Numbered from the stretch's first letter, positions 8,339 to 34,958 are shown. The stretch is 64,000 nucleotides of DNA from Alphaproteobacteria bacterium (GCA_965214705.1 OZ243972.1:832001-896000), one strand, 5' to 3'. Notes: generated from the letters alone by a model not told the origin. Made by a program: numbers and translations.

Positions 8339-11033
8339 ATGCCTCACAAGTCGAGACAGACGATGACGAAACCGCCGACCCGCCCCCGGTCCTACACTGA
8401 TCTGGATTGCCGCGGGCGGCACTCGGCACGCGAACGGGTCGCGCTCGCGGTATCCATTTGCGAGGGGCGCGGCGTAAACCCAAGTTGGCACTTTTCCGCT
8501 GCCTGTGTTCCCTATTGGTTTGATTCAACGCGATATTTTTCTCGGTCGATTCCAACATGGCCCCACATTTTGTGAGATTCTGTCAGCTCATCAGACGGGT
8601 CCTCGTGCGGTGGATGGCGGGGTCCACGCCCGCCGCCGAGGAGATTGCGGCAACCTCGGCGGCCGGGCGCGTGTCCTGGCGGTTGACGATCAAGGTGCCG
8701 TCGGTCTGGCGCAGGCGCGTGGTGATCCGCACCCAGGTCCGCATGCTCTCGCGGATCGACGCCCAGCACTTGTGGATGCCGCGCGCGGCCAGCCGGGTAC
8801 GGATCAGATGCACGGCGTGGTAGGCCAGCACGGCGATCAGCAGGTGGGCCGCGATGCGCCGGTCGAGCTGGTGCCAGATCGGGCGAAGGCCGAGCTCGGA
8901 TTTCAGGCTCCGGAATGTCGCCTCGATATCCGTGATCCGCCAGTACGTCCGCAGGACCGTCTCGATGTCCCAGTCGACGTGGCTGGTGCGCAGCACATAG
9001 GCACCGGCGCCCTCATCGGCCTCGTCGTATCGCGGCCTGCGCTTGAAGCGCACGGCGGTGGCATTGGGGCCGGTTTTCGCCCTCTCGACCGTGATCTCGT
9101 AGTGCCTGGCGACGGCGGAGAAGCGCTGCTTGAGGCGGCCTATGCTCTCCAGCACCTTGTCGTAGCGCTTGAGGCGGCCCTTGACCGGGAGGCCGCCGTG
9201 GAGCCTTTCCAGCGCCGCCTCGAAGCGGTTCCGCCTCAGGCCGATGATCGCGTTCTCGGCCTTCTTCTTGCCCTCGCTGACGACGTAGAGCCGCGCCTCG
9301 CCGTCCTCGCTGGCAAGCCGCCAGGCCCGCACCTCGTGGCGCGCGCTGGTGATCAGCAGGGCCTCGGGTCCGCCCTCGGGCGGCGCAGGCCTGGCACCGC
9401 GGCTGACCGCGATCCAGTCGTAGCCCTGCTCGCCCAGCCAGACGATGTTCTCCTCGGTGGCGATGCCCGCGTCCATGACCACCGTGGGCTTCGGCGCCGT
9501 GCCGCCGCACACCGCCTCGAGCCGCGCCAGCGCCTCGTGCAGCGTGCCCGGCTCGCTCACGTTGCCCGGCAGGATCTCGCAACTGCGCGGGAAGCCCGCG
9601 CCGTCGAGCGCCAGCGCCAGCGTGATGAGGGGACAGTCGTCGCGCTTCTGCTTGGAGCGCCCGAACCTGGGAAGCTCGCCGCCCGTGTGGCCGTGGTAGT
9701 GGACGTTGGTGAGATCGTAGAAGGCGATCGTCTCGGGCAGGTCGAGCAGTGCGCGCTCACGGTTGAACAGCTCCCGCTGGATGGCGGCGCGGTGGCGCCA
9801 GAGCAGGTCGCCGATGCGGTAGAGCGTCTTGCGCCGCAGCGCCTTGCGGTCGCCCTCCAGGCCCAGGAGCTCGGCGGCCGCGCTGTCGTGGCGGAGCCAG
9901 CGGCTGGTATCACGCTCGCTGGCGGGATGGACCATCCTGGCGACGATCAGCGCGCTGGCGATGCGCCCGTCGCGGCCCTTGATGTCGAGGCCGTGGAGGA
10001 TTTCGGCGAAGCCGAGGGCGTCGAGGGCCTTGAGGCACAGGCGCTCGCAGCCGACCGTGCGCGGGTTCTCGTGCTCCAGGGTATCGAGGTCGACGGTGGC
10101 GATGTCGGGCTTGCGCGCCTCTTCCTGCATCGCCTCGACGCGGAACCCCCTGGCCCTGAGCTTGGCGACGATGTCCTCGGCTGCGGCCCGCACATCCGCC
10201 TCGCCCTCGAACAGCGGCGGCTTGCCGTGAAGCAGCGCCTCGGCGAGTTCGGTGACGGCCTTCCACTTCTCGCGCGGCACCGGATAGTCGGTGCCGAGAT
10301 TGAGCAGCGTCCTGTGGCGCACCTTGTCGCCGACGCGCTGGGCGAGCACGAGGCGATGGCTTCGGACCGGCTGGCCGGCCTTGTCGGTGTGTGTCCTGGT
10401 TGCCTTGATGTACATGGCGGCGCCGTTTCTGCGATGCCTGTTTCGCATACACGGCGTTCGCGGCATCTGGCAAGAGGGATATCGACTCAACTCAAAAGTC
10501 CTGGCCCCACAATTGGCTTCCAGGACCACGAATGGCAAATGTGGGTCTCAGGTGTCCTCCAACCCCAACATCTAGTGGTTCAGCGCCGCAAAACTGGCTC
10601 GAACAGGCTCGGCTGGTCGGAAAAAGTGCCAACTTGGGTAAAGATGACAGAGCTGCGGAGGCGTGTCCTGGAGCTGCTTTGGGCGAGCGGTCGGCCGACG
10701 GGCGCCTACGAACTGATCGAAGCGGTCAAGCTCAGAGACTCGCGTCCGGTCGGGCCGCCGACCGTGTACCGGGCGCTCGAGTTCCTGATGGCGCAGGGCC
10801 TCGTTTCCAGGATCGAAAGCCTGAACGCCTACGTCCCGTGCGCCCATCCCGAGCGCGACCACGATTGCCTTTTCTTCATCTGCAGCGGCTGCCGGGCATC
10901 GGTCGAGCTCGAGGATCCGCGGATCGGAGGACTACTTGCCGAGGATGCCGCCGTCCTCGGGTTCGCCGCGACACGTCGAATGGTCGAGGTCCAGGGCACG
11001 TGTGCACAGTGCGCAGAAGCCGGCGCGGCGTAG
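8339..11033 (+). pseudogene. zur: Fur-family zinc uptake regulator, split by IS1634
   Basis: Joining 8339-8478 to 10643-11033 gives a continuous 176-aa ORF: ...CEGRGV/KMTELRRRVLELL...PPTVYRALEFL...HPERDHDCLFFICSGC...GTCAQC. The start may instead be 8363. Confidence 0.88.
8479..10638 (-). mobile_element. IS1634-family element, type A copy 1 (transposase 8583-10415)
   Basis: Terminal IRs CCCAAGTTGGCACTTTT, 4-bp TSD TAAA, transposase motifs FYDLTN, GRSKQKRDD, MDAG, IEATFRSLKSELGLRP. Length 2160 bp. Confidence 0.93.
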
Positions 11034-14141: not shown

Positions 14142-15098
14142 ATGAACCAGATCCCCGTTACCGTTCTGACCGGCTATCTCGGCGCCGGCAAGACAACGCT
14201 CCTGAACCGCATCCTGACCGAGGAGCACGGCAAGAAATACGCCGTGGTCGTCAACGAGTTCGGCGAAATCGGCATCGACAACGACCTCGTGGTCAACGCC
14301 GACGAGGAAGTGTTCGAGATGAACAACGGTTGCATCTGCTGCACCGTACGCGGGGATCTGATTCGCATCCTTGGCGGTTTGATGAAACGGCAAGACGGCT
14401 TCGATGGAATCCTCATCGAGACCACGGGCCTTGCCGATCCCGCGCCCGTCGCCCAGACCTTCTTCGTGGACGAAGACGTTCGGCGACGGACCTGGCTCGA
14501 TTCGATCGTAACGGTGGTCGACGCCCGCCATGTCGTCCGGCGGCTGGAAGACAGCCATGAGGCGCTGGAACAGATTGCCTTTGCCGACGTCATCCTTCTC
14601 AACAAGACGGATCTTGTGCCGGCCGATGAGCTGGCGCAGGTGGAAACGCGCATCCGTTCGATCAATGCGACGGCGGCTATCCATCGCACACAGCGATGCG
14701 AGGTGGGTCTCGACACGGTTCTGGGGCGCCGAGCCTTCGATCTTGATCGCATCCTGGCGATCGAGCCGGACTTTCTTTCGGAAGACGACCATGAACACGA
14801 CGATGCCGTGAAGAGCGTCTGCCTGCGCACCGACCGGCCGTTGGACGGAACCCGCCTCACAGGGTGGTTGCAGCGCCTACTCGCCGAGCGTGGTCAAGAC
14901 TTTCTGCGAACCAAAGGGATCCTGTCGATCGCCGGTCAGGACAAGCAGTTTGTCGTCCAGGCGGTCCATATGCTGATGGAGGGTAATTTCACGAAGCCGT
15001 GGAGCCCTAACGAGAAACGAGAGAGTCGCTTGGTCTTCATCGGACGAAACATCGATGAGCTGGAGCTGCGTCAGCAGTTCGACGCCTGCATCGCATGA
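14142..15098 (+). CDS. COG0523/CobW-family GTPase metallochaperone
   Basis: GYLGAGKTT, NEFGE, NGCICC, ETTGLADP, CobW C-terminal domain. Confidence 0.93.
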   Translation: MNQIPVTVLTGYLGAGKTTLLNRILTEEHGKKYAVVVNEFGEIGIDNDLVVNADEEVFEMNNGCICCTVRGDLIRILGGLMKRQDGFDGILIETTGLADPAPVAQTFFVDEDVRRRTWLDSIVTVVDARHVVRRLEDSHEALEQIAFADVILLNKTDLVPADELAQVETRIRSINATAAIHRTQRCEVGLDTVLGRRAFDLDRILAIEPDFLSEDDHEHDDAVKSVCLRTDRPLDGTRLTGWLQRLLAERGQDFLRTKGILSIAGQDKQFVVQAVHMLMEGNFTKPWSPNEKRESRLVFIGRNIDELELRQQFDACIA

Positions 15099-16150
15099 GC
15101 TTGTCCGCTGAGCTGGACAAGACGTCGCTGCTCGATCGTATCGGCACCGGCCGCTCGCTCGACGCTTATGTGGTGGGCGTTGCGTTCCTTGAGGAGGGAT
15201 TGCTCGCGGCTGCACTCGGGGACGGTCGGGTCGCGTTCATCGACAGCGAGAGCACGAATCCTCCCTCCTTCGTTTCGGTGCACGACGGGGCTTGTCTGTC
15301 GCTGGCCGTCGACTTGGGGCAGCAGCGCGTTCTGACGGGCGGAGACGACGCTCGGCTGGTGAGCACCGATACCGACGGCGAGACCACCGAAATCGCAGCC
15401 ATTGCGGGGCGATGGGTCGAGCCGATTGCCGTGAGCAGGGCATCCGGACTATGCGCTGCGGTCTTCGGCAAGACAGTTTCCCTTTTCGCGCAAGATGGAA
15501 GAGCGGTTGGAGCGTTCGATCATGCGAACACGGTCGGCGGTCTGGCATTCGACCCGAAAGGGCGGCGGATCGCTGCCGCGCACTACGGTGGAGTCAGCCT
15601 CTGGTGGGCGAAGCCCAGCACGCAGAAACCCAAACGACTCAGCTGGTCGGGTTCGCACCTTAGTCTGACCTGGAGCCCGGACGGGAAATACATCGTCACC
15701 GCAATGCAGGAGAACTTGCTGCACGGTTGGCGTATCTCCGACAGCGCCGATATGCAGATGCCTGGCTACCCGACGAAGGTCAAGTCGATGAGCTGGCTGC
15801 CGAAGGGAAGGTATCTGGCGACCGCCGGCGCGGAGTCCGTGGTTTGTTGGCCATTCCACGGCAAGGGCGGCCCACTGGGCAAGGCGGCGCTCGACCTCGG
15901 GTGGGGCTTCGAGGGTGTGGTGACGGTGGTGGCTGCCCACCCCCGGCATGACGTTGTCGCCGCCGGATACGAGGACGGTGCCACCATCCTCGTGCAGATC
16001 GACCGCGATCATCCGGTTGTGGTCAAGCGACCCGGCAAGGGCGCTGTGACCGCACTCGCCTGGTCGGCAGATGGGCAGCATCTCGCACTCGGTACCGAGA
16101 GCAGCTTTGTCGGCCGAATTAGCCTTTCCGACTGGCGGACTCCATCATGA
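15095..16150 (+). CDS. WD40-repeat protein
   Basis: Repeated LAFDPKG, LTWSPDG and LAWSADG blades; start overlaps the COG0523 stop. Confidence 0.85.
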   Translation: MSLSAELDKTSLLDRIGTGRSLDAYVVGVAFLEEGLLAAALGDGRVAFIDSESTNPPSFVSVHDGACLSLAVDLGQQRVLTGGDDARLVSTDTDGETTEIAAIAGRWVEPIAVSRASGLCAAVFGKTVSLFAQDGRAVGAFDHANTVGGLAFDPKGRRIAAAHYGGVSLWWAKPSTQKPKRLSWSGSHLSLTWSPDGKYIVTAMQENLLHGWRISDSADMQMPGYPTKVKSMSWLPKGRYLATAGAESVVCWPFHGKGGPLGKAALDLGWGFEGVVTVVAAHPRHDVVAAGYEDGATILVQIDRDHPVVVKRPGKGAVTALAWSADGQHLALGTESSFVGRISLSDWRTPS

Positions 16151-16394: not shown

Positions 16395-16722
16395 AACGGT
16401 TGGCGATCACTATTCACGATCCATGAACCCAGTTTCTGGCGGTTTTTGTGTGCGAGGCGTACCCCGGAGATAGCGATCTCAGAAGTGCCGATTTGGGTCG
16501 GGCTCGTTGGGCCGAAGGAGGATTCGAGAGCGCCGCCCGCGCCGGCCATCCGGCCGCGACGCTGTGCCCCGCGAGGACGAGGCGCGCGCGGCCGACGAGC
16601 TCGATCTGCTGCCGGACGGGTCTGCCATCGCCGAGATGCTGGGCGACCATGCGGTGATTCGGGAGCAGGCTCGGGCGTGCGCTGATCACAAGACCAGGTA
16701 GAGCCAGCAAGCCCGCATCGGC

Positions 16723-17142
16723 TCAGGAGAAGGAAGTCTGGCCCTCTATCAATTCGTGGGTGCAATCGAGCGGCGGAATACGCGCAAGGATGCCGCTTCG
16801 CATGCTCGGGGGCCGCTTGTTACGCTCCACGAACCCATCGCTTCGCGACAGCCACATCCGGACTGCTACGAGAATATCGTCGACGTGGCGTGCCGGATCC
16901 AGGTCGCCGAACAGGTATGTGAATCGGTCGCGATGAGAGAACGCAATAACGCAGGGGCGCAAACACTGACTCATGCAGCGTACGCGGCGCAGATTGAAAG
17001 GTGGCGGCAAAACTGCACCAAATAGGGACTGTTGCAATGCACTCGCCAGCACCGCGCCAGGGCGCTGGCGGTTTGCAGTGTCTGGCCAGCCCTGCGGTCG
17101 ACAGCGCGTGCATACCGAAATGGTCGGTAGCTCAATAATCAT
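16723..17142 (-). CDS. DUF1636-family metal-binding protein
   Basis: VCTRC, CMSQCLRPC, TYLFGDL, ILARIPP. Confidence 0.82.
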   Translation of the reverse strand: MIIELPTISVCTRCRPQGWPDTANRQRPGAVLASALQQSLFGAVLPPPFNLRRVRCMSQCLRPCVIAFSHRDRFTYLFGDLDPARHVDDILVAVRMWLSRSDGFVERNKRPPSMRSGILARIPPLDCTHELIEGQTSFS

Positions 17143-17852
17143 GATAGCGGCGTCTCGTGTTCGACCCCTCTCGGCCACGGCTCCGGAGATGCGTCCGATC
17201 GCTTGTTGAGGGAGAGCAGCAATCGCGTGCAGCCAGTGCCCGCGATGGGCGGCGAGCGGTGCACGATTCCGCTGCCTGGTCCGGCGCAGTTTCCCTTGAA
17301 TATCGCCACGTCGTTGCCACGGATGTGCTCTAGCGGCCCTTTGAACCGCTTCTGTGCGCGCAACGCCCGCTCGGCGTGGATCGATTGGACCCACTCGGTG
17401 CCGGGACCGCGGTACGTTGTCAGGAGGCGCGCCTCCACGTAGTCCCGGTGGAACTTCCAGCAGGAATCGTGGCTGACGCGCGCCAGCCTTACATCAACGA
17501 GATCACTCCGGGCGATGCCAGCAAAAGCCGAGACGAGATCATCGACGTCCCCGACCAGCAGGTCGCGCATGTCTCCGGCAGGCATACCAATTTCGTCCAA
17601 ATGCGGTTCCACCGCACGTCGAAGGTCGCCGGGCCGGACAAGAATACGCAGGTCGGGAAGACACGAAGCATCCATTCGGTCGAGCCATGTCTGCAGGCAC
17701 ATGGGAAGCGCGCGCCGCCAGATCACGAGCTCCATGTTGGGCTTGTTAATGGCGGCGAGGCCTTCCGCTGCGTCGCACGTCGCGATGCCCACGCCCAACG
17801 TGGCGGAGGTCCTAACGGACTCACCTTCCAGGGATACCGACGGAACGGTCAT
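17139..17852 (-). CDS. DUF1826-family protein
   Basis: [34 protein letters not shown]; typical COG0523 neighbour. Confidence 0.85.
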
Positions 17853-19081
17853 GACGGCTCGGCCCGCTTCCAGACCGGGAATGGATCCTTGAGCTTTTTC
17901 CAGGCAGCAGGCTGCATGGCTTTGGCGTTGGCATCGCCGACAAGGCAGGCGTCGAGCCGGCGTCGGATCGCGGCCTCGTCCATGTCGGTGCCGATGAAGA
18001 CGATTTCCTGGTGGCGGTCTCCGTAGACGGGATCCCAGGATTTGGCGATGTTCCGACGCCATTCCGGGTGATCGGGCCAATGTTCCTTGGGGGCGTTCGC
18101 CCACCAGAAGCCCACGGCCCTATGGCGGACAAGCGCGCCGGCCTGGCTCAACTCGCCGACCCATTCAGGACGGTTGGCCAACCAGAAGCGCCCCTTGGCA
18201 CGAATGACCCCCGGCCACGACGAGTTGATGAAGGCGTGGAATTTCTCGGGATGAAAGGGACGGCGTGCCTGATACACGAAGCTGCGCACCCCATACTCCT
18301 CGGTCTCCGGCTTGTGCTCGGCGAAGCCGTATAGCTCCTTGAACCAAAGCGGGTGTTCCTGAGCCTTGTCATGGTCGAACCGGCCGGTGTTCAGCACCTT
18401 GTCCAGCGACACACGGGACATGCTGGTCTCGATGAGTTCCGCATCGGTGTTGAGCGACCGGATGATCTTGCGCGCGGCATCGAGCTGTTCGGGCCTTGCC
18501 GCATCGATCTTGTTCAGAATGATGACGTCGGCGAATTCGATCTGATCGACGAGCAGATTGACCAGCGCGCGGTTGTCGTCCTCGCCCAGCGCCTCGCCCC
18601 GGTCCTTGAGGAAATCGGTTGATGCGTAGTCGCGCAGGAGGTTTGCGGCATCGACCACGGTCACCATCGTATCGAGGCGCGAGACATCCTCCAGGCTCTC
18701 GCCCTCTTCCGTCCGGAAGTTGAAGGTGGCCGCTACGGGCAGCGGCTCGGAAATGCCGGTCGATTCGATGAGAAGGTAGTCGAACCGGCCATCCTGAGCG
18801 AGCCGACGCACCTCCTTGAGAAGGTCATCGCGCAACGTGCAGCAGATGCAGCCATTGGTCATTTCGACCAGAGTCTCTTCGGTGTGGCTCAGATCTGCGC
18901 CGCCGTCGCGGATGAGATCGGCGTCGATGTTCACCTCGCTCATGTCGTTGACGATGACCGCGACGCGCTTGCCTTCGCGGTTGTTAAGGATGTGGTTCAT
19001 CAGCGTGGTCTTGCCGGCGCCAAGGAAGCCGGAAAGTACGGTGACGGGCAGAATGGGTCGTTCCAGGGGCTGGGTTGTCAT
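17849..19081 (-). CDS. COG0523 Zn metallochaperone GTPase, ZigA/YciC type
   Basis: [61 protein letters not shown]. Confidence 0.93.
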
Positions 19082-19153
19082 GGCAATTCTTCAGAGCGTG
19101 ATTGCGACGTCGGGGGCGCTGGGTGCGAGCGCCGCCTGGCTCGTTGGAGACCC

Positions 19154-19657
19154 TCAAAGCTGCGTCGGATTCGGCGCGTCACCGTAGACGTCCTTTGGAT
19201 CAAAGGACCTCCGTGACTCCGCGAACACGAGTCGAACAGGTCCACCAGAAGGGCCGCCGAGCTCAACCGACCGGTAGAAGCAGGAACGGTATCCGACGTG
19301 ACAACTGGCGCCCGAACCGGCGACCCGGACGCGCAGCCAGACGGCGTCCTGGTCGTCGTCGATGCGCATCTCGACAACCTCTTGGACGAGGCCGCTGGTT
19401 GCGCCCTTGCGCCAAAGGCACTGGCGGCTTCGGCTCCAGTAGTGCGCTTCGCCGGTCGCGATCGTTCGCTGCAGAGCCTCACCATTCATGTAGCCCAGCA
19501 TCAACACTTCGCCCGTGTTGGCGTCGGTCGTGATGCAGGGGAGCAGTCCGTCGGCATCGAACTTGGGTGCCAAGGCGAGGCCTTCCTCGACCTGCTCGAC
19601 CGTCGTCCGGGCAGCGAAGGCGGCGACGGCTGCTGGAACGGATTTGTCAGGAGCCAT
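19154..19657 (-). CDS. hisI: Phosphoribosyl-AMP cyclohydrolase paralog
   Basis: [27 protein letters not shown]; DDDQD in place of DCDxD. Confidence 0.92.
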
Positions 19658-20300
19658 TGGAGCCGCTTCGGGGGCTTCCGATCATCGCGAGAAACTCCCG
19701 GCGGGTCGCCGGGTCGTCGCGAAAGGAGCCGAGCATGCGGCTGGTCACCATGCTGACACCCGGCTTGCGAATCCCGCGCGTGGTCATGCATTGGTGCGCC
19801 GCCTCGATGACGACACCGACACCGCGCGGCTTCAGCACCTCCTGTAAGGTATCCGCGATCTGCGACGTCAGCGCCTCCTGGATCTGCATCCGCTTGGCGA
19901 GCACCTCGACAAGGCGCGCAAGCTTGGAAATCCCGACGATGCGGCCCGCCGGCAGGTAACCGATATGCGCCTTACCCAGGATGGGAACCATGTGGTGCTC
20001 GCAGTGCGATTCGAGGCGGATGTCGCGCAAGACGATCATCTCGTCGTAGGCGGCGGTCTCCTCGAACGTCGTCGCAAGCAGCGCGACCGGATCTTCGTTG
20101 TATCCGGCGAAGAACTCCTCATAGGCCCGCACCACGCGCGCGGGCGTGCCTGCGAGGCCTTCGCGGTCGGGGTCGTCGCCCGTCCATTCGATCAGCGTCC
20201 GCACCGCCGCTTCCGCCTCGGACCGGCTGGGCCGTCGGCGCCCGCCCGAGCCGGTGAACACTGATTCTGTGGGCCGGCTTCCGACCACCGCTGTGTCCAT
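19647..20300 (-). CDS. folE: GTP cyclohydrolase I, type IA
   Basis: [37 protein letters not shown]. Confidence 0.95.
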
Positions 20301-20331
20301 GTCAAACCCTTTCCGGCGGCCACGCCCGGCT

Positions 20332-22059
20332 CTTGAGTAACTTCTCTCTAAGCCGTTGACATAGAGGCATTTGTGTTTTTGTTGTCGTCGTCGATCTCGA
20401 CCAGTTGGAAGCCGAGCTTCTTGGCCTGTCGACGGAGCGAAGAGAACTTTCGGTCCAGGCGTCGGCTCTCGTAGACCTCCATCCCCTTCTCGGCATATTG
20501 CTGGCCGCGGGTCACCATCAGGTAGATCAGGCAGGCGAGTTCTCGGGCGGTGGCGACAACGGCTACGCTGGTGTCCATCCGGGCGAGGCGGCTGCGGTGC
20601 TTGGCGCCGATGAAGGTTTGGCTGGTGCGAGCGGTCATGGCCGCCATGCGCAGTGCCTGGCCAACGCGGTTGACCACCTTGGGCCCCCGGCCCGGCAACG
20701 GTTTGCCGCCGCTGATCCTGGTCCCAGGCGCCAGCCCCAGCCAGGAACTGAAGTGCTGTGCGGAGGGAAAGGCGGAGAAGTCAGGACCGATCTCGGCGGC
20801 GATCACCAGGGCAGTGTTGACGCCGACGGTGGGGATTGCGGTGAGATCGACCCCCATCATCTTATGCAGCGCCATAGCCATGGCCTTATCCTGCCCGCGG
20901 AGCGCCCTGCCGCTGCTGCTTGGGGTCTCGTTCGACGCCGTGCCCGATGATCCGACACTGGGAGTGTCCTCGGGCGTACCCTCATCCGTCGGATCGTCCG
21001 GCGGGGTCAGGTGCTCAACCTCCGCCATGATCCGCGCCTCGCAGTCCGCGATCTGCTGCTCCAGAAAGTCGTAGCGCTGCATCGCCTGCTCAAGCGCGAA
21101 CAGGTGCTCCTCGCGCCAAGTGCCCTCCAGGCTCGCGGCAATCGTGTCGGCGCTGGCCTTGATCCGCCTGTCGCGAAGCGACGCCAGCCGCCCGGGGTCG
21201 CGCTCGCCGGCGATGATCGCCCGCAGGATGCGCTCACCCGTCTTCCCCATGATATCGCTGATCACCGAGTCCAGACGCACGTTCATCTGGGTCAGCGCCT
21301 TCTGCATATGCAGCACGCAGCGAGAGCGGTCCTCGATCAACTGCTTCGCCTGGCGCATGAAGGAGCGCAACGGGCAGATCGCGTCGCCCGGCCGGAAGGC
21401 GCCGCGCAGAAGGCCGTAGGACATCAGCTGCCAGATCCACTGGCAGTCCAGCACATCGCTCTTGCGCCCGCCGATCTGCTTCGTCATCCGGGGCGGCACA
21501 AGCATCACCTCGAAGCCGGCTCGATCCAGGACCTCGTAAACCGGGATCCAGTAGACCGAGGTCGACTCCATCGCCACCTTCGTCACACCGCACGACTTCA
21601 GCCACTCGGCCATCGCATCCAGGTCGCGCGTGAACGCGCCGAACTCCCTCACCGGTTCCTCGGCTCGCTCCGGATCCACCGCCACGAAGTGCCGGTCCTT
21701 GCCGATGTCGATCCCGGCGCAATTCGGGTGCACTACCTTGAGGCGCTGCCTCCTTCTCCGCTTGCGCGCCATCGAGAGCCCCCCCAAACTCCGTTGACGT
21801 TGCGGGTGGGGAGGAACCGCGGCGAAGTCTCAATCTCTTGAACGAGGTCACGGGCGAACCCGCGCCATCAGTGACAGAAGCCGATCACGGTTCGGGCCAA
21901 GCTTCCAAACGGGTGCCCTCGCACGCCACTGAAGGGACGGCCTCGTCTGCCCTACCCGCTACCACTTCACGCTTCAACCGTCGAAGACTCAACCCCAGTC
22001 GAAGACTCTACCCCCAGTTACTTCAGCGACTGAGCCGCTGCGCCGCAGTGGTGGTGGCT
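20332..22059 (-). mobile_element. IS110-family element (recombinase 20348-21772) with upstream non-coding region
   Basis: AGIDIG, MESTSVYW, RKSDVLD (DEDD) and SWLGLAP..SGG. No terminal IRs; GGCT at 20328-20331 and 22056-22059 are the candidate junction repeats. Ends are inferred. Confidence 0.85.
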
Positions 22060-22093
22060 TCCAAGGGGGGCTGGGCGCTTGCAATCGATCAAC

Positions 22094-22111
22094 GCAACGT
22101 TATAGCGTTGC
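22094..22111. promoter_or_regulatory. Second Zur-type operator, for the folE-hisI-COG0523 arm
   Basis: Palindrome GCAACGTTATAGCGTTGC, sharing the AACGTTATA core with 8317-8334; lies about 65 bp from folE once the IS110 is removed. Confidence 0.65.
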
Positions 22112-22357
22112 ATACTCAAAGCGCAATAGAGATCAAGCCGATGACGCTCCCGTCGACCCAGCCTCGGCACTGCACCGTGTTGTTAAGCACGCTTTGTTGA
22201 CCCCCCACAATCCGGCCAGATCAATGGGTTACTGCGCCGATCGGCACCGAACCCGTACGCCAATCAACAAACTGACTGACCACGCCACTCAAACCGCCCC
22301 TCTGAAAGTGGTTATCACCCAAATCCACATAAGAGCGCTGGCTGACGGTCGTGCAAC

Positions 22358-23389
22358 TCAGTCGGGCTTGCGGGCAAGGAAGCAATAGAGCGGAGTGAAT
22401 ATGCCCAATTTGCCGCCCGCGACATAGGCGTTCGCCGTGCGGTCCATCAGTTGGACAACGGCCGCTGAACCATTGGGAAAGAGCCGGAGCACCTCCGCCA
22501 TCCGCAGACCCGCGAATATCGCCCTGCGACCCAAGGGCGTCCTGCGAAAAGCGTTGCCCAATGTCCCGCTCCGGCCTTCCATTGGCCGATGCCACGGTAT
22601 GCCCTGGCCTTCCCTGTCGTCCCTGTTCGCTGCTTCGATGACGTCGAAGCCCGCAGCCTCAAGCGCGCGATTCACCTCCGAGAACGTGGCGATCTCTTTC
22701 AGGGCAATTCCCCGCTTGAGTTCATCCTTGATAGTGCGGTGACGGCTGTCGCTGGGGTCAAACTTTTCCGTCATGCACATCTCCTGACCCCACAGCAGGG
22801 CTCCCGGTTTGAGCACACGATATATCTCCGCAAACGCGCGCTCCTTGTCCGGCGCGTGGCAGGTCGACTCGATGGCATAACCCGCATCGAACGAGTTGGC
22901 CTCAATCGCACTCATATCCATGAAGTTGCATTTGATATACTCCGCCATATCGTCGAGCCCCGTCTCGATATTCCTCCGCTTGGCCTGTTCCAACTGCTGT
23001 TCGTTATTGTTGAGGCCGACAACCCTGGTGCCGCCTTCGCGGATGACCCGCCGCATGGGACCGCCCACGCCGCAGCCGACATCGACAACCACCATGCCCT
23101 CTCGTAATTCCAGCTTCTCGATCATCAGACGCTGATGGCGAACGACCGAGTCCTCCAGAGATTCCTCGCGCGTCAATGGCGCGAAATGCAGGGACTCGCC
23201 CCACCCGAATTGCATGATTCCGCTGCACAGCTCGTAGTAATCGTTCACCGTCTCGGTGAAGTCATAATCGCCGTCATCGGCATCGGCCCGCTCCATTCTG
23301 TCGAATCGATCACCGAAGCGTGCTACACGACCTCTGACGTCCCGGACTTGGTAAAGGATCCGCAGGTATCTGGACAAACTTGCTAACAT
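22358..23389 (-). CDS. Sterol C-24 methyltransferase (SMT/Erg6-like)
   Basis: All SMT signature regions present: FGWGESLHFAP, VDVGCGVGGP, YAIESTCHAP, EIYRVLKPG, and C-terminal GGKLGIFTPLYCFLARKP. Confidence 0.88.
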   Translation of the reverse strand: MLASLSRYLRILYQVRDVRGRVARFGDRFDRMERADADDGDYDFTETVNDYYELCSGIMQFGWGESLHFAPLTREESLEDSVVRHQRLMIEKLELREGMVVVDVGCGVGGPMRRVIREGGTRVVGLNNNEQQLEQAKRRNIETGLDDMAEYIKCNFMDMSAIEANSFDAGYAIESTCHAPDKERAFAEIYRVLKPGALLWGQEMCMTEKFDPSDSRHRTIKDELKRGIALKEIATFSEVNRALEAAGFDVIEAANRDDREGQGIPWHRPMEGRSGTLGNAFRRTPLGRRAIFAGLRMAEVLRLFPNGSAAVVQLMDRTANAYVAGGKLGIFTPLYCFLARKPD

Positions 23390-23825
23390 GTGCTGCCTCG
23401 TTTATTGTCCATCTCGCAGTTTAGCTCTTTGGTAGCGGATGGCAACGACGCCGGAAGCATTTGCTAGTCTTACAGCGGCTTGTCTCCACATCACAAGGGA
23501 GGGATCCAGGCGAGGGGAGGCGCCCTTCGCCGCCGGCACCGGGGAAAAAACTAAGCGAAGCCGGTTGACGGCTGGTGCCGGGACCATCGACATGGCCCTG
23601 CTGTCGGGCTCATGCGCCGTCCATTTCGCTGACGAACTCAACGGTCGTTTCATTACACTAAAGGCGCCGAGCACGGGCCACTAGCAATGCAGGGGCCGTC
23701 GAGGCGACCCCAAAGACGTGACGGGTGGCGAAAACCGGGCTAAATTTCGCGCGACATGGTGAGAGGGGGCGCTTGTCTGGGAACGATCGGCCCCCATCTC
23801 AGCTCTTATGGGAGGCCTTGGCCCG

Positions 23826-25613
23826 ATGCCCGACTCGGCCGCTACGGCCCAAGAGCTGCGTCTGCCCGAGGAGCTTATCCTGATGCTCCTCAACGAGCAG
23901 AACGGCTATTTCCACCAGGTCCCCGGCTGGAATCTGAACTGCGCGGTGGTGGGCGCGGTGCTCGCGGAACTCTCCCTGCTCTCGCGCATTGACACTGATC
24001 TCGATTCGCTGATCCTCGCCGATTCAGCGGAGACAGGCGATCCGGTGCTCGATCCCGTCCTAAAGGAAATCGCCGGGGAGTCCGTTCAACGGGACGCCGT
24101 GTACTGGATCGAACGGCTTGCCAGCAAGGCGGAGTCGATCATCGACCACACCCTCGAACGCTTGGTCGAGCTGAAGATCCTGGAGCATCACGACGGCGAT
24201 TTCTGGACGCTGGCCGCCGCGACGTGGCGCGAGGAGTTGTCCGGTGGTTCCCAGGAAGGCACCGTTGGCCAGTTCGTAAAAACGCGTGTCCTCAAGGCGC
24301 TCTTCACCGAAGAGATTCCCGACCCCAGGGACATCATCGTCATCTGCCTCGTCAATACGTGCGACGTCTTTCGCTTCATGTTCGAAATCGACGACGAGAC
24401 CCAAGAGCGGATCGATTTCATTTGCCGGATGGATTTGATCGGCCGTTCCATCGCCGCCGCGGTCGAGCACAACATCTCCAGCCCGTCGCTGCGGCCTTCG
24501 GCGCTGACTAAGAAAATACCCGTCGTCCCCCTGCACAAGCTCTTGCTGAACCCGCGTCTTCGGGGCGGCAACATCGCCGCCATTTTCGCGCACATCGCGG
24601 AAGAACACGGTCCGGTTTTCCAAATCCGTCCTCCGTTCCAGGAACCCACGACCTTCCTCGCCGGGCCCCAAGTCAACCGTTGGATACACCGGAACGGGCG
24701 CATGTATCTGCGGTCCAGGGACTATTTCACCGACATCGAGAAGGTTTATGGCGCGTCCGGGGTGATTGCCTCGCTCGACGGGGCCGACCATTTTCAACTG
24801 CGCAAGGCGATGCAGCCGGGCACTTCCCGCGGGAGGCTGGAGGATCGACTGCATGACCTCTACGGCCATGCTCGCGCGTTTATGGCGGACTGGAATGTGG
24901 GATCGTCGCTGCCGGCGACCAGCATGTGCCGACTGATGATCAACGCGCAGATATCCCCGCTGGTCATCAGCATTGATTCACAGGACTTCGTGGAGGACCT
25001 GATCAGATTCAAAGAGCGCGCGCTCACCACCCACGTGGCCAAAGTTCTGCCCAAGTTCATGCTGAACACCCCATCGATGAAACGTGCGTCAAGGGCCATC
25101 GACGTCGGGGTACAGCGGATCCTGGGCCTCCACACGCCCGCCCAGCGGGTCGGTTGCCCGCGGGATCTCGCCGACGACCTGCTCAGCCTCCACGCCAGTG
25201 ACCCGCAGTTCCTGCCCGAATCGAACCTGGCCTTCGCTCTTTCGACGCCCATGCTGGCTAGCATGTATCTGGGAGACGCGTTCGGCTGCGCGCTCTACGC
25301 CATGGCGTCGCAGCCTACGCTCTACGAACGGATCCGTGCCGAAGCCGACGCCCTCTTCGAGAACGGCGATCCGGATGCCAAGGACTTCGCCGACGAGTCC
25401 ATCGACGTTACGCGGCGCTTCATCTTGGAATGCCTGCGCATGTACCCCATCGTGCCCGCGTCCATCCGCAACGTCATGAATTCATGCGTTGTCGAGGGCC
25501 ACGAGCTGCCCGTGGGGGCGCGCATCGCCATCGCCTCGACGGCGCCGCATTACATGAGCGACGTCTTCCCGGACCCCTTCACATTCGACATCGACCGCTA
25601 TCTGCCGCCGCGT
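23826..25613 (+). pseudogene. GPP34/GOLPH3-domain-cytochrome P450 fusion, C-terminally truncated
   Basis: N-terminus LRLPEELILMLL..GAVLAELSLLSRI..TGDPVLD..LERLVELKIL is GPP34-like. The P450 part has LDGADHFQLRK, ECLRMYP (ExxR) and FPDPFTFDIDRY, then runs into ISAs1 sequence before the heme-Cys motif. Confidence 0.8.
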
Positions 25614-26980
25614 GCGCGCCCCGGTCGAGCAGGTAGCGGGCGAACTTGCGCTGGGTTAGCAGCGCGTCCGTCGTGACCGTCTTGCCCGCGATGTTCGGGA
25701 TCAGGTCCACCAGCGCCGTCACGGTGCCGATCTCGTTGGTGCGCTTTGTCTCCTCGTCGGCCCCGACTTTCAGGAGAAGTTTTTTTGGGCGAGCGTGGCC
25801 TTGGTCTCGTGCCCGACCGCGCTCATGACATGAGCCTGGGTCCCGTCCTCGTCGATGGCCCCCCTCAGGGTCTTGCCGTCGATGGCAAGCGCCGCGTCGC
25901 CTGAGCCGTGGGCCTCCTGCCACTTGCGCAACGCCTCGTCCAACTGGTCCGGGTCCACCCGGATCACCACATTGCGGATGGTCGACATCGAAGGCGGCCG
26001 GCGCACCCCGTCGCGCAGCCGCACGCCGAAGCGGGCCAGCGCCTTCTCGCCGAGATCGTCGACCCACTCGGAGATGGCCTTCCAGCCTCGCATGCCGCAG
26101 AGCGTCGCGCCACTCGCAAGCGCGAGCACGCTGGGCAGCGAATGCCGCCGTCCCTTGCGCGTGCGGGGGTCGTCGATGTCCTTGAAGTAGGCGTAGAGCG
26201 ACTCTTGCTGAGCGGCGCTGATCATGGTTCTCGGAACTCCTTTCTTCCACAACTCCCGATCCAGCCCGGCAGCGGACAGCCGGCGGCAGGCGTCGGGAAC
26301 CAGGGGGCGCAGCAGCACAAGCTTCGGCGTCGAGCCGGCGACATAGCCCGAGCGGTGGCGCCGGAAGCCGCGGGTCTGGCCGACCGCCAGCCATCCAGCC
26401 GCCCGGTAGACCGTGCCCCGGAACCTCGCCGCGTCCACGAATGTTTCCAGCATCAGCACGGGGTGGCCGAAGCGGGCCGGCCAGTCGCGCGCCAAGCGCC
26501 GCGCGCAAAGCCCCAGCACCCGCGAGCCGAGGTTCGGAACACCCCGTCCCGGCAGGATCAGGAAGCGCGCGTTGTTCGCGATCAGATGCAGCCGCCCGTG
26601 CTGCGTGCGGAAGTCCCAGCCGATCCACTCGTCCCGCGCCCGGCACTTGCGCGCCGCAGCCGAAAACACGGCCAGCGCCAGCCACTCGCCGCGCCGATGG
26701 GCGACGTACCACGCCGTCGCCCCCACCTTCGCAGACGCACCCAGGTAGTGATGCCCCTCCATCAGCGCGCGGAACCGGGCCTCGTCCTCCGGCCGGACAG
26801 CAGCGACATCGACCTCGGAAAGATCCACCGTAGAAACCGTCCCCCTGCTCGAAGCCGATCCGCAGCAGAACACCGCGAATCCAGTCGCCTCAATCCATAG
26901 CAGGGTTGGCGCGCGCTGACCAGACCCAAGGTCAACTCGTAGCGCAGAACTCAAAATCAGGCTTGGACAAATTCGCCCTG
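25612..26980 (-). mobile_element. Truncated ISAs1-family element with N-terminal DUF4338 domain
   Basis: HHYLG/RDEWIGW/NNARFLILP/LETFVD (DUF4338), then DPRTRKGRRH, AIDGKTLRG, NEI, TDALLTQ. End CAGGGCGAATTTG at 26980; A7C frameshift site at 25779-25786; 3' part deleted. Confidence 0.82.
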
Positions 26981-27204: not shown

Positions 27205-27301
27205 ACACAAACGTAGTGCCATAATCCAGGGCCGAGAATAATTTAACGCCGCCTTTTCAACAACTTGGACCTCGCGCTCGGACTAAAATGGCGAAGATGG
27301 G
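27205..27301 (+). mobile_element. Orphan right end of an IS1634 type-B relative
   Basis: CACAAACGTAGTGCCATAATCC...AAAATGGCGAAGATGGG matches the right end of the elements at 58024 and 60184. Confidence 0.75.
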
Positions 27302-27831
27302 TCAAGAACAAACGTCTCGTCAGCCTCGACGATCCCGGCAAGCCGGTCCGGCGCCTGGCGCACCGCCGCCAGAAAGCGGTGGCGCCAGCGATGCGCCGTG
27401 CTCGGCGCAATCCCGCAGCGCGCGGCAGACTCCTTGATCGTCTCGCCCTCGGCAAGCGACGCGCCAAAGGCCAGCCAGCGCTCCTTGTGGTGAAGCCCGG
27501 ACAGTGCCGTGCCCGTGAGCGCACCGAAGGTCTTGCCGCACTCCTTGCACCGGAAGCGGCGAAGACCGCGCGCCTTGCCCCGCGACACCGCCCCGCCGGC
27601 GCCGCAATGCGGACAGCGCCGCTCGTCATCCACGCCCAGCTCGATCGCTGCCAGCGAGGCCGCGCCCTCCGGCGGGTCCGACAGCACCGCCGCGACCTCC
27701 TTGCGCTGCGACGCCGTCAACTCATCGACACGCGAGAACCAGTCCCGAAACCGCTCGTGATCCATCTCTCTGACCCCCAATGCGAATCGGGAGCGATTCT
27801 ATCACGGTGCATACGTTTCACGAATTGAGCC
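27302..27831 (-). mobile_element. IS1595-family element, 5' fragment
   Basis: CPHCG..FRCKEC Zn ribbon, HTH, VEADETF. Near-identical to the copy starting at 35444; end GGCTCAATTCG. Confidence 0.85.
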
Positions 27832-32691: not shown

Positions 32692-34152
32692 CTAGTATTT
32701 CGTCCTTACGAACATACCGATCGTGCCATAGCATTGATAGCCAGTCCGCTTATGTTTGTGCTTGTTCAATGTCGCATTGTAAATTCTCTTGTTGAAGATC
32801 TTCCCGCAAACGGTGCATTTGAAGACGTATGTTGGACCACTTGCAGCCCTGGAACCCACACTTCGGGGTGTTCTGCGTGCGGGTGAACGCCGCACGGTCC
32901 GTGCGCGGCCCGCACTCAATGTGCTTTCAGCGCTGGACCTTGATGTCCTCGGAATGCTCTGAGGCCCCCATGGCGTTAGCTCGATTGGGTATCGCGGCGC
33001 GAATGGCGTTTGGGTGGGTTTGACTCCGAGAATGCTGTCGACCAAATAGCTGCGCGGCTGGCCGCTGTCCGCGCGTACGGCCATGAGCAATACGTCTCCG
33101 GCCTGTGAGCGGCGGAGCGAGTAGGCTTCGATCGCGCGTGTCGAACGATTGCCCTGCTTGTCGCGGTAGTCGATCTCCACGAGAAGGCGGTTTGCGGCAG
33201 CAAAGCGGATCATTTCGATGAGACTCTGCCCTCGGCTGCCTGCGGGCAAATCGAGTACACGCTCGCGGATGAGCGTGTCGCCGGCGCCGACAGGCATCGC
33301 CGCAAGCGGCTGAGCGACGGCGCCTTGGAGCCAATCGAAGATTTCCGGGAGCGCGTCCCAAAACGTCGTGACCGGGAGCAGCGCGGGGAGCTGGTGCTCC
33401 AGCATGTGAATCCAACCAGTCTCAAGTTCCGCACGGTGCGGCTCAAGGTCGGTCATGCGCGGAATGCTGATGCCCTTGAATTCACACTTGGCGCGCAGGA
33501 CTTCCATGAAGCGCTGCGATTCCGGACGTGCCTCGGTGTTCCGATACAGATGTACGACGTCATAGAGATCGCGTGGGCGCGTCCGTTCCGCGAGCGCTCT
33601 GAACTTCTCCGCGAACGCCTCCGTGTAATCGTAGGCCAGGACTTCGATGCCATCTTCCGGAGCATCGCTGTATGGATGGAAAATCTGCGCGTTGACCGGG
33701 GGGAGAACGATCCGCTCGTCGGCGGTCAAGTCAAGCTTGATGCGCGGGAGGGCGTGGGTCGATGAGACGGGGCCCTTGTAACTGATCTTGCCTTGGCACG
33801 AGAATTGACCCCGGGGGTTCTCGTAGATATCGAACTCCTGTTTGTCGGCCGGAATCTCAATGCCGGTTTGGTCGTAGATCCATTCACCAATTTCAGAAAA
33901 TGCGCCCTTCAAGAAGCTGGCGTCGAGATGCTGCGGTTCGCGGAGCGTGAAGTCGAGATCCTCCGAGAATCGATAGGTCTCGAAGAAGCACTTTTTCAGG
34001 CACGTGCCGCCTTTGAATATCCAACTCTCCGCGAGATCCTTGTGCCCATAGATGCCGGCGAGCATCCAGCCGAGAACATAGTCCTTCTCCACGACGTGCG
34101 GCGTGAGTGATGTCTGCTGGGCTATAGCAAGGATTTCGCGTTTGTCGATCAT
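32692..34152 (-). CDS. AbiEii-type nucleotidyltransferase toxin with C-terminal WYL-like domain and Zn finger
   Basis: EKDY, FKGGTCLKK, RFSEDLDF, EKFRAL..R.RPRDLYD; then VEIDYRDKQGNRSTRAIEAYSL..PRSYLVDSI; then CTVC..HKH..C. Confidence 0.85.
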   Translation of the reverse strand: MIDKREILAIAQQTSLTPHVVEKDYVLGWMLAGIYGHKDLAESWIFKGGTCLKKCFFETYRFSEDLDFTLREPQHLDASFLKGAFSEIGEWIYDQTGIEIPADKQEFDIYENPRGQFSCQGKISYKGPVSSTHALPRIKLDLTADERIVLPPVNAQIFHPYSDAPEDGIEVLAYDYTEAFAEKFRALAERTRPRDLYDVVHLYRNTEARPESQRFMEVLRAKCEFKGISIPRMTDLEPHRAELETGWIHMLEHQLPALLPVTTFWDALPEIFDWLQGAVAQPLAAMPVGAGDTLIRERVLDLPAGSRGQSLIEMIRFAAANRLLVEIDYRDKQGNRSTRAIEAYSLRRSQAGDVLLMAVRADSGQPRSYLVDSILGVKPTQTPFAPRYPIELTPWGPQSIPRTSRSSAESTLSAGRARTVRRSPARRTPRSVGSRAASGPTYVFKCTVCGKIFNKRIYNATLNKHKHKRTGYQCYGTIGMFVRTKY

Positions 34153-34958
34153 TGCGTTTCCTTGAGAGCCCAGCGCTGCGGCACGCGCAGGCGCCATTTT
34201 GTCACGACGAGCGGCCCATCCTGGGCAGGATCGAGCTTCGCATGACCGCCGCTCAGATGCTGCTCGCAAAGCCGGCCCAGTTCAGCACCGCCAGGAAAGC
34301 GCTCGGCCAGAAACCCGAGGCGCTTGAAGACAGCGCCGTTGCCGAGGCGCACTGCGTGGTCGACGAGCTTCTCGTCGTCACGATCATCGCGTCGCAGATA
34401 GGCAGCGAGGCAGTCGGATATGTGCTGGATGCCGCCACCGATCGCCGGATCGTCGAGCATGTCGATGATCGTTCGGTGCACGTCGGAGACGGGCACTCGC
34501 GTCTGATGACGCCAGACATGCTTCGTGCCGAAGATCTTCCGCTCGTGGATGTGCTTCAGCGAAAAGAGCGTGCCGTGCCGCTCCTGGCGCTTCTGGCGCA
34601 CCGGCTGTGCGGTCATCACGAAGATATCCTTGAAGATCTGTTCGGTCAGGTCCCAGTGCTCGGCTGCCGTGCGGCCGCCGATGTAGGCTGGAGCGAAGAG
34701 TGCGGGAACGAGCACCCAAGGGTCATCGAGGACGCGATCTGAGCCCATGGTGTCGATGGAAGCGGCGACATAGGCACCACGACCCACTCGTCTCAGCCAT
34801 CCCTGCTCAACCCAGCGGGACAGACGTTGGGCGGCGCCGGTACGGTCGAGCTGGAGGGCAAGCACCACGTCATCGACATAAATCACGTCGCCGGCGGTGG
34901 ACAGCACCCGGACAAGCTGCGCGCGTCCTCGGGGGAGGTGGGGCATGCTTTCTTCCAT
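34149..34958 (-). CDS. AbiEi-type (type IV TA) antitoxin/regulator
   Basis: N-terminal wHTH (LSRWVEQGWLRRVGRGAY), AYIGGRTAAEHWDLTEQI, SDVHRTIIDML; stop overlaps the toxin start. Confidence 0.85.
   Translation of the reverse strand: MEESMPHLPRGRAQLVRVLSTAGDVIYVDDVVLALQLDRTGAAQRLSRWVEQGWLRRVGRGAYVAASIDTMGSDRVLDDPWVLVPALFAPAYIGGRTAAEHWDLTEQIFKDIFVMTAQPVRQKRQERHGTLFSLKHIHERKIFGTKHVWRHQTRVPVSDVHRTIIDMLDDPAIGGGIQHISDCLAAYLRRDDRDDEKLVDHAVRLGNGAVFKRLGFLAERFPGGAELGRLCEQHLSGGHAKLDPAQDGPLVVTKWRLRVPQRWALKETQ

Follow-up and report, generated by a model that had tools for sequence, protein, structure and literature searches.

The open reading frame described here lies on the plus strand of the window, i.e. 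the whole 64,000-nucleotide stretch of DNA from an Alphaproteobacteria bacterium (GCA_965214705.1) that was analysed. It spans positions 23808..25676 and encodes 622 amino acids; the start shared with homologs is the seventh residue (M7, nt 23826), and an alternative upstream ATG is present at 23808. Pfam searches showed that ORF residues 19-220 (23862..24467, +) match the GPP34/GOLPH3 family PF05719 with an E-value of 1.6e-27 (97.3 bits vs. a cut-off of 29.1) over profile positions 1-199 of 201, which places a full-length GPP34 domain of this family at the N-terminus. A truncated cytochrome P450 domain (ORF residues 251-602, 24558..25612, +) follows in the same frame; its match to PF00067 (residues 251-603, E 5.2e-23, 82 bits vs. 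a cut-off of 22.8) covers profile positions 18-393 of 462 and ends before the haem-binding loop. An ExxR motif and a PERF-like FDIDRY are present, while the haem loop and the L helix are absent. For the fusion protein, no NCBIfam family scored above its cut-off. The central claim of a preliminary description of this DNA, a GPP34-like N-terminus running in frame into a P450, was borne out by these domain matches, as was the assignment of the N-terminus, which matches GPP34 over the full profile; the premature end of the P450 match was not remarked on there. The recognizable gene remnant covers 23826..25612 (+) and represents codons 1-596 of a 673-codon gene. G+C content at the locus is 0.60-0.63, compared with 0.66-0.70 over most of the window.

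An intact, divergently oriented gene of the sterol methyltransferase (SMT) type is located at 22358..23389 (-; 343 aa; Pfam Methyltransf_11 and Sterol_MT_C, E 2.1e-16). Next to it, an interval of about 5.8 kb (16433-22269), against some 0.7 kb in the intact relative L031, accommodates an IS110-family transposase (20348..21787, -) and a second gene for a CobW-type GTPase (17849..19081, -). A WD40 beta-propeller protein of 351 aa, encoded at 15095-16150 (+), adjoins CobW and ZnuA-type zinc genes; WD40 repeats belong to a class described as eukaryotic-like in sponge symbionts. On the other side of the fusion gene, we found an IS1595-type transposase fragment with a zinc ribbon and HTH (27283-27780, -) and an AbiEii nucleotidyltransferase toxin fused to a WYL domain (32692-34269, -). 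The region between 25.6 and 36 kb is low in G+C (0.56-0.63) and looks like a patchwork of mobile elements.

Comparison with the full-length ortholog P0001 (673 aa), which is 97-99% identical to the window ORF, revealed 4 residue differences over the shared part, ending at ...DRYLPPR (R602). Past this point P0001 reads NEHRSPGYAPYGLGTHKCLG..., and the frame in the window continues for 20 unrelated codons, read out of insertion-sequence DNA, to a stop (25613..25676, +). DNA identity to the intact ortholog locus L031 amounts to 98.8% up to nt 25612 (codon 602), where the gene is joined to position 834 of a 2202-bp insertion sequence (IS). The IS copy in the window (25612..26980, -) is internally truncated and comprises positions 834-2202 of 2202 at 100% identity. 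Many genome copies began at the same base, as if the window copy were a complete element; this was rejected, as extension of the flanks showed the full element to be 833 bp longer. The 2202-bp IS has terminal inverted repeats and a transposase with DruA-like (PF14236) and DDE_Tnp_1_assoc domains that reads in two frames. It occurs in the genome in 19 full-length and 6 partial copies of about 99.6-100% identity. In sequencing run X1, the word depth of the IS was ~185 vs. 5 for unique flank. As the gene and the IS are both cut at the joint, a deletion or rearrangement is indicated here rather than a simple insertion. On alignment with the intact ortholog, the window copy was shown to have lost its haem loop through this rearrangement at nt 25612; the last 77 codons, corresponding to the Cys-ligand haem loop, the L helix, and the C-terminal sheets, are gone. 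A tblastn search with the last 83 residues of P0001 over the 7.9-Mb genome (three contigs, rated 98.5% complete) retrieved only a 39%-identical paralog, megablast of L031 gave no match in the genome for its positions 9788-10998, and the genome contains no second fused GPP34-P450 copy. Since the Cys-ligand loop and everything after it are deleted, the window copy cannot be a working P450, and the earlier view of it as a membrane-targeted enzyme is not supported for this copy. With a whole GPP34 domain and an open frame, the truncated protein might still retain some role.

Given the abundance of near-identical IS copies in this genome, we considered that the truncation is an assembly artefact and that the living cell has an intact gene. 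Contigs assembled from two public sequencing runs of two studies (X1 and X5), one of which may be the source of the assembly, match the window without mismatch from the P450 to position 25641. They end there, inside the repeat, as a unitig would, so that the overlap on the IS side is 29-30 letters, against a criterion of 31 letters for a record to count as bridging. Two further runs, X7 and X10 (the latter labelled sponge metagenome), continue with the intact reading ...RNEHR...; parts of the stretch are without cover in both, a gap to which no weight was given. Yet a mis-join through a repeat would run through an IS end and would not begin at IS position 834. Moreover, the junction words are present in contigs from both studies, none of the loose ends listed for X1 and X5 (all but three) continues the intact gene at 25612, and none of the three contigs of the nearly complete genome contains the missing 3′ end. 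We thus regard an artefact as most improbable, and the support of the junction by public-run contigs as good but not final.

The fusion itself is widespread. From a collection of 5.8 billion proteins, 8000 candidates were scored and 2348 were retained at E <= 0.001; the best 120 of them all carry PF05719 and PF00067 and are mostly 673-676 aa long. Of 124 pattern matches in a scan of species-representative genomes, 42 stretches were confirmed, giving 40 loci carried by metagenome-assembled genomes (MAGs) of Alpha- and Gammaproteobacteria, Nitrospirales, Dehalococcoidia, Acidimicrobiales/Ca. Poriferisodalis, Ca. Binatia, and others. The presence of both domains in the best 120 homologs and of 40 loci in other genomes demonstrates that the fusion is genuine and not a contig chimera. 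Among 1.84 billion cluster representatives, 400 proteins matched at E <= 1e-30, including dozens of fused proteins of 650-690 aa with identity down to 28%. The architecture, which the preliminary description did not know as characterised, is in print: GPP34-P450 proteins of sponge symbionts were published in 2025 as GPP34_L (Microbiome 2025;13:4, PMC11706023), the text of that paper reporting no biochemistry. According to the same source, 656 of 663 long GPP34 proteins consist of GPP34 and a P450, some short GPP34 proteins nest within the long clade, and GPP34 proteins, P450 fusions especially, occur in sponge-symbiont genomes and not in the free-living relatives analysed; the role proposed for GPP34_L is phagosome evasion (PMC11706023). 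The two domains are joined by a proline-containing hinge in this family. A possible link to sponges is seen also in our data: related loci come from MAGs titled Candidatus Poriferihabitaceae and Poriferisodalis, and 0.35-0.43 of the words sampled from the stretch were recovered in runs labelled sponge metagenome (the one examined covers the P450 part); the share in a coral metatranscriptome run (X20) is 0.06. The window ORF combines both domains in one polypeptide and, judged from its sequence, is a degenerate member of the published GPP34_L family.

We next turn to the P450 core, which can be assessed in the window copy up to the joint and in its intact relatives beyond it. The I-helix stretch LSTPMLASMYLGDA (25239..25280, +) is shared by the subfamily and aligns opposite FAGQHTS in the CYP51 of this genome and VAALDTV in a P450-only paralog. 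It reads LASM-YLGD, with Tyr replacing the Thr and a gap of one residue where the acid would stand, and an HMMER alignment to the solved structure 6mcw agrees with this placement within one residue. The (A/G)Gx(D/E)T acid-alcohol pair is hence missing from the window I-helix, and the non-canonical helix noticed earlier was corroborated by both translation and alignment. In an alignment of 29 subfamily members (P0001 and 28 of the 40 loci, near-duplicates and partial loci omitted), Y481, G483, and D484 (P0001 numbering) are invariant in 29/29 rows, and so are E535 and R538 of the ExxR motif as well as H612 and C614. The haem-thiolate signature FxxGxxxCxG with its Cys ligand, looked for in full-length homologs, was found in intact relatives (YAPYGLGTHKCLG) and is missing from the window copy. 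A wider alignment comprised 42 full-length fused and 20 P450-only proteins, picked from 150 of the 400 representatives, plus P0001 and 5 loci. Its 48 fused rows fell into 13 with the gap and no pair, 27 with D/E-T, 4 with H-T, and 4 with something else. All 13 pairless rows have Trp at position 35, the counterpart of GOLPH3 W81, compared with 3 of the other 35 fused rows. Loss of the pair, as far as this alignment goes, is a trait of one subfamily and not of all GPP34-P450 fusions. Most GPP34-P450 clusters have a canonical AGLDT-type I-helix and lack the W81-equivalent Trp, which the pairless subfamily keeps among the rows picked. The altered I-helix suggests chemistry that proceeds without the usual proton relay for O2 activation.

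A structure model of the intact ortholog had a mean pLDDT of 65.6 and a pTM of 0.50. Values of mostly 76-95 were obtained over residues 11-120 and 151-220 of the GPP34 part, and values below 50 over residues 377-477, the P450 F-G region. Foldseek matched the modelled fold to CYP184A1 and Methylococcus capsulatus CYP51 with TM-scores of 0.66-0.69 (normalised by target length), so that the P450 fold anticipated for this protein was recovered in the predicted structure; the Foldseek list was filled by P450s and held no GPP34 row. With its weak P450 half, the model is adequate for confirming folds and of no use for contacts between the domains.

For the GPP34 half, a profile of the first 235 residues of the subfamily was searched against the PDB and retrieved GOLPH3 (3kn1, 9qpq) and Vps74 (2zii, 2zih, 4tu3) with E-values from 2.9e-5 to 7.7e-4, the best being 2.9e-5 for GOLPH3 and 4.3e-4 for Vps74. 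The PI4P pocket of GOLPH3 is formed by W81, R90, R171, and R174, and a hairpin (190-201) together with W161 inserts into the bilayer, as described in PMC13408441. Alignment to 9qpq pairs W81 with W35, R90 with V42, R171 with E103, and R174 with I106, so that one of the four pocket residues is kept; this alignment is weak (E 5.5e-5), and single columns may be off by one residue. W35 is invariant in the 29 subfamily rows. Because the three pocket arginines are replaced by V, E, and I, PI4P recognition of the GOLPH3 kind is unlikely, and the PI4P-type membrane targeting that had been proposed by analogy becomes doubtful, only the Trp of the four pocket residues known from GOLPH3 (PMC13408441) being retained. 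The 10-residue stretch that holds W161 in GOLPH3 is absent from the fusion subfamily. The hairpin with an aromatic tip is kept, with G124 and F126 invariant, and peripheral membrane contact through it is possible.

The surroundings of the gene in other genomes favour a link to sterols. ORFs were called in the 40 loci and clustered, and the clusters were named by Pfam; overlapping ORFs were resolved by conservation across loci, given the shadow ORFs of high-GC DNA. Recurrent neighbours comprised an RND/MMPL protein of ~780 aa with a sterol-sensing domain (24/40 loci), a Rieske protein with a KshA_C domain (22/40), an FAD amine-oxidase-like protein (17/40), a LolA_like protein (16/40), a DUF1302-like protein (10/40), a squalene epoxidase-oxidosqualene cyclase (SE-OSC) fusion of 1152 aa (7/40), and squalene synthase (3/40). 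SMT was present in 13/40 loci by clustering and in 15/40 by tblastn, where one match was a 57-residue fragment. At least one of these neighbours was found in 37 of the 40 loci, from several phyla; the exceptions are L043, L044, and L046, of which two match the fusion gene only in part. Among solved structures, the Rieske neighbour is most closely related to KshA enzymes (E 2.5e-22). The intact relative L031 has a LolA-like gene after the P450, in a stretch that is missing from the window genome, and within the window the divergent SMT is the only neighbour of the sterol set that remains. The RND pump, Rieske oxygenase, and FAD oxidase families are common in general; a specific pointer to sterols comes only from the sterol-sensing and KshA_C domains, the SE-OSC fusion, and the SMT. 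The results show that the intact gene belongs to a horizontally shared island for the handling of sterol-like lipids. A link of the GPP34-P450 family to sterols is likely, the evidence for it being entirely that of gene neighbourhood. The initial guess of a lipid or sterol substrate fits the conserved neighbours (SMT, KshA-like Rieske protein, sterol-sensing RND protein, and SE-OSC fusion) and stands on this same basis.

Our literature search, which covered main texts, retrieved no paper linking GPP34 or the fused P450 to sterol genes of bacteria. Clusters of such genes that include SMTs were reported from sponge symbionts by Brown et al. (2023; PMC10070321); P450, erg11, and CYP51 are not mentioned in the main text of that paper, the cluster genes being listed in its figure 3 and supplementary data.

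The best solved relatives of the fused P450 by sequence are the M. capsulatus CYP51s (E 3.3e-17). Identity to CYP51 is ~20% and the match covers residues 458-645 only; together with the lack of the I-helix His-Thr, this places the protein outside the CYP51 family. A canonical CYP51 (E 7.4e-103 to 6mcw, I-helix FAGQHTS) is encoded elsewhere in the same genome, in a sterol cluster on contig C3 at about 2424693-2431642 (L051, L052). Also encoded in this cluster are an SdmA-like Rieske protein (401 bits vs. a cut-off of 600), a reductase of the ERG4/ERG24 type, and an SE-OSC fusion that shares 71% identity with its counterpart in L040. Genes for an IS91-type transposase, a TrwC relaxase, and an integrase of the phage type flank the cluster, which may itself be mobile. 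The P450-only paralog (C1:1113360-1114589; L053:8192-9787, -) shares 34% identity with the fused P450 but resembles CYP51 more closely (E 8.4e-39), and its I-helix is of the canonical AALDT form; elsewhere in the genome, GPP34 also occurs as three stand-alone genes (L003-L005).

With the CYP51 of the window genome (G000) as query, an ortholog was identified in 2 of the 5 other carrier genomes searched (G004 and G005), and no CYP51 above 28% identity in G001-G003 (best 21-27%). In these three genomes (L038, L039, and L045, respectively), the SE-OSC fusion lies directly 5′ of the GPP34-P450 gene, and G001 and G003 have a second open frame of ~688 aa matching a P450. An OSC-type gene was detected in 11 of the 26 carrier genomes examined (G000-G005 and 20 further). 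Among the 20 further carriers, 5 have an OSC-type gene, 1 a 70-residue fragment, and 3 only cyclases at 29-33% identity, while 11 gave no cyclase match at E <= 1e-20; in all, no cyclase was found with the query used in 15 of 26. As a cyclase was not found in over half of the carriers examined, a host-derived rather than self-made substrate is likely in many cases. The island thus probably often resides in bacteria unable to make sterols, which favours action on lipids that are taken up. The substrate could also be a non-sterol, such as another polycyclic or host lipid.

Taken together, we consider it probable that the window gene is a GPP34_L remnant, dead as a P450 in this strain, and that its intact relatives belong to a sterol-handling island in which they serve as a sterol enzyme with a GPP34 dock. 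The island comprises the SMT, the KshA-like Rieske protein, the FAD amine-oxidase-like protein, the HpnN/sterol-sensing RND pump, the LolA-like and DUF1302-like partners, and sometimes the SE-OSC fusion. The intact enzyme would oxidise or rearrange a sterol at the cytoplasmic face of the membrane, and the substrate may often be drawn from the host and not made by the carrier. Docking to the membrane periphery or to a lipid would fall to the GPP34 domain, through the retained hydrophobic hairpin and not through a PI4P pocket. The fused P450 is distantly related to CYP51 and, in the pairless subfamily, has lost the acid-alcohol pair; its altered I-helix suggests chemistry bypassing the usual proton relay for O2 activation. 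More tentatively, we propose that the intact subfamily is a sterol-tailoring haem enzyme and not a host effector, whose GPP34 domain docks at the membrane or hands over the lipid without PI4P within a cross-phylum island for uptake or synthesis, modification, and export, and whose Tyr-x-Gly-Asp I-helix could support peroxide-dependent or rearranging chemistry on oxygenated sterols.

The published proposal is a different one. In it, GPP34_L is a host-directed effector that is released, binds PI4P on the sponge phagosome through GPP34, and blocks maturation (PMC11706023). The restriction of P450 fusions to sponge-symbiont genomes as opposed to the free-living relatives analysed there (PMC11706023) agrees with such a role, and so do the related loci in Candidatus Poriferihabitaceae and Poriferisodalis MAGs, the intact form in a run labelled sponge metagenome, and the invariant W35. 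On the other hand, none of the residues aligned with R90, R171, and R174 (V, E, and I) is basic, the N-terminus (MPDSAATAQELRLPEE...) has no hydrophobic signal-like stretch, and P450 function depends on haem and on redox partners in the cytoplasm. In 37 of 40 loci, the gene also has lipid-tailoring and pump genes around it, a context not considered in the main text of PMC11706023 in so far as the words sterol, squalene, and methyltransferase are absent from it. We find an effector role for these proteins unlikely. Alternatively, the subfamily could be a diverged sterol 14-alpha-demethylase replacing CYP51. This would explain why the M. capsulatus CYP51s are its best solved relatives, 6mcw is among the fold matches, the fusion gene comes immediately after the SE-OSC fusion, in the same orientation, in L038-L040 and L045, and G001-G003 yielded no CYP51 above the identity given. 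It is at odds with the low and partial similarity to CYP51, the replacement of the I-helix His-Thr, the true CYP51 carried also by G000, G004, and G005, and the lack of a detected cyclase in most carriers examined, and such a replacement is in our opinion very unlikely.

The GPP34-P450 fusion is among the most widespread sponge symbiont-specific genes, and its sole published reading is phagosome evasion (PMC11706023). The sterol-type neighbours (SMT, steroid-type Rieske protein, sterol-sensing pump, and, in some loci, the cyclase) offer a testable metabolic alternative, which bears on who makes or remodels sponge sterols. If the sterol-tailoring reading is true, symbionts contribute to the unusual sterol inventory of sponges. 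Sponge sterols serve as biomarkers. The window would then exemplify loss of the P450 half by an IS-associated deletion, which fits the short GPP34 proteins nested in the long clade (PMC11706023). At the strain level, the enzyme has been lost here and is retained by a relative whose DNA is 98.8% identical over the portion of the locus common to both. There is also a message for annotation: the ORF appears whole (622 aa, both domains called) and is nonetheless a pseudogene without a haem ligand.

Among known systems, the published GPP34_L proteins have the same order of domains as the window gene, GPP34 and then cytochrome P450, from which the window copy differs in lacking the last 77 codons; in contrast to the present analysis, the text of PMC11706023 describes no I-helix or other P450 motifs. 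The sterol clusters of Brown et al. (PMC10070321) share the SMT with Methyltransf_11 and Sterol_MT_C domains, which here adjoins the fusion gene, and, as in those clusters, OSC and SdmA-type genes occur in the same genomes as the fusion gene. GOLPH3 and Vps74 (3kn1, 9qpq, 2zih) share with the fusion protein the Pfam family, the profile match, the W81 counterpart, and the hairpin with an aromatic tip. They differ in that R90, R171, and R174 are not conserved and the W161 stretch is absent in the fusion protein, which, unlike GOLPH3/Vps74, is bacterial and fused to an enzyme. The CYP51-ferredoxin of M. capsulatus (6mcw/7jj1) is the nearest solved P450 and among the top fold matches and likewise occurs in a sterol gene context; its I-helix reads AGxHTS vs. 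ASM-YLG in the fusion protein, and its fusion partner is a C-terminal ferredoxin, whereas that of the protein studied here is an N-terminal GPP34 domain.
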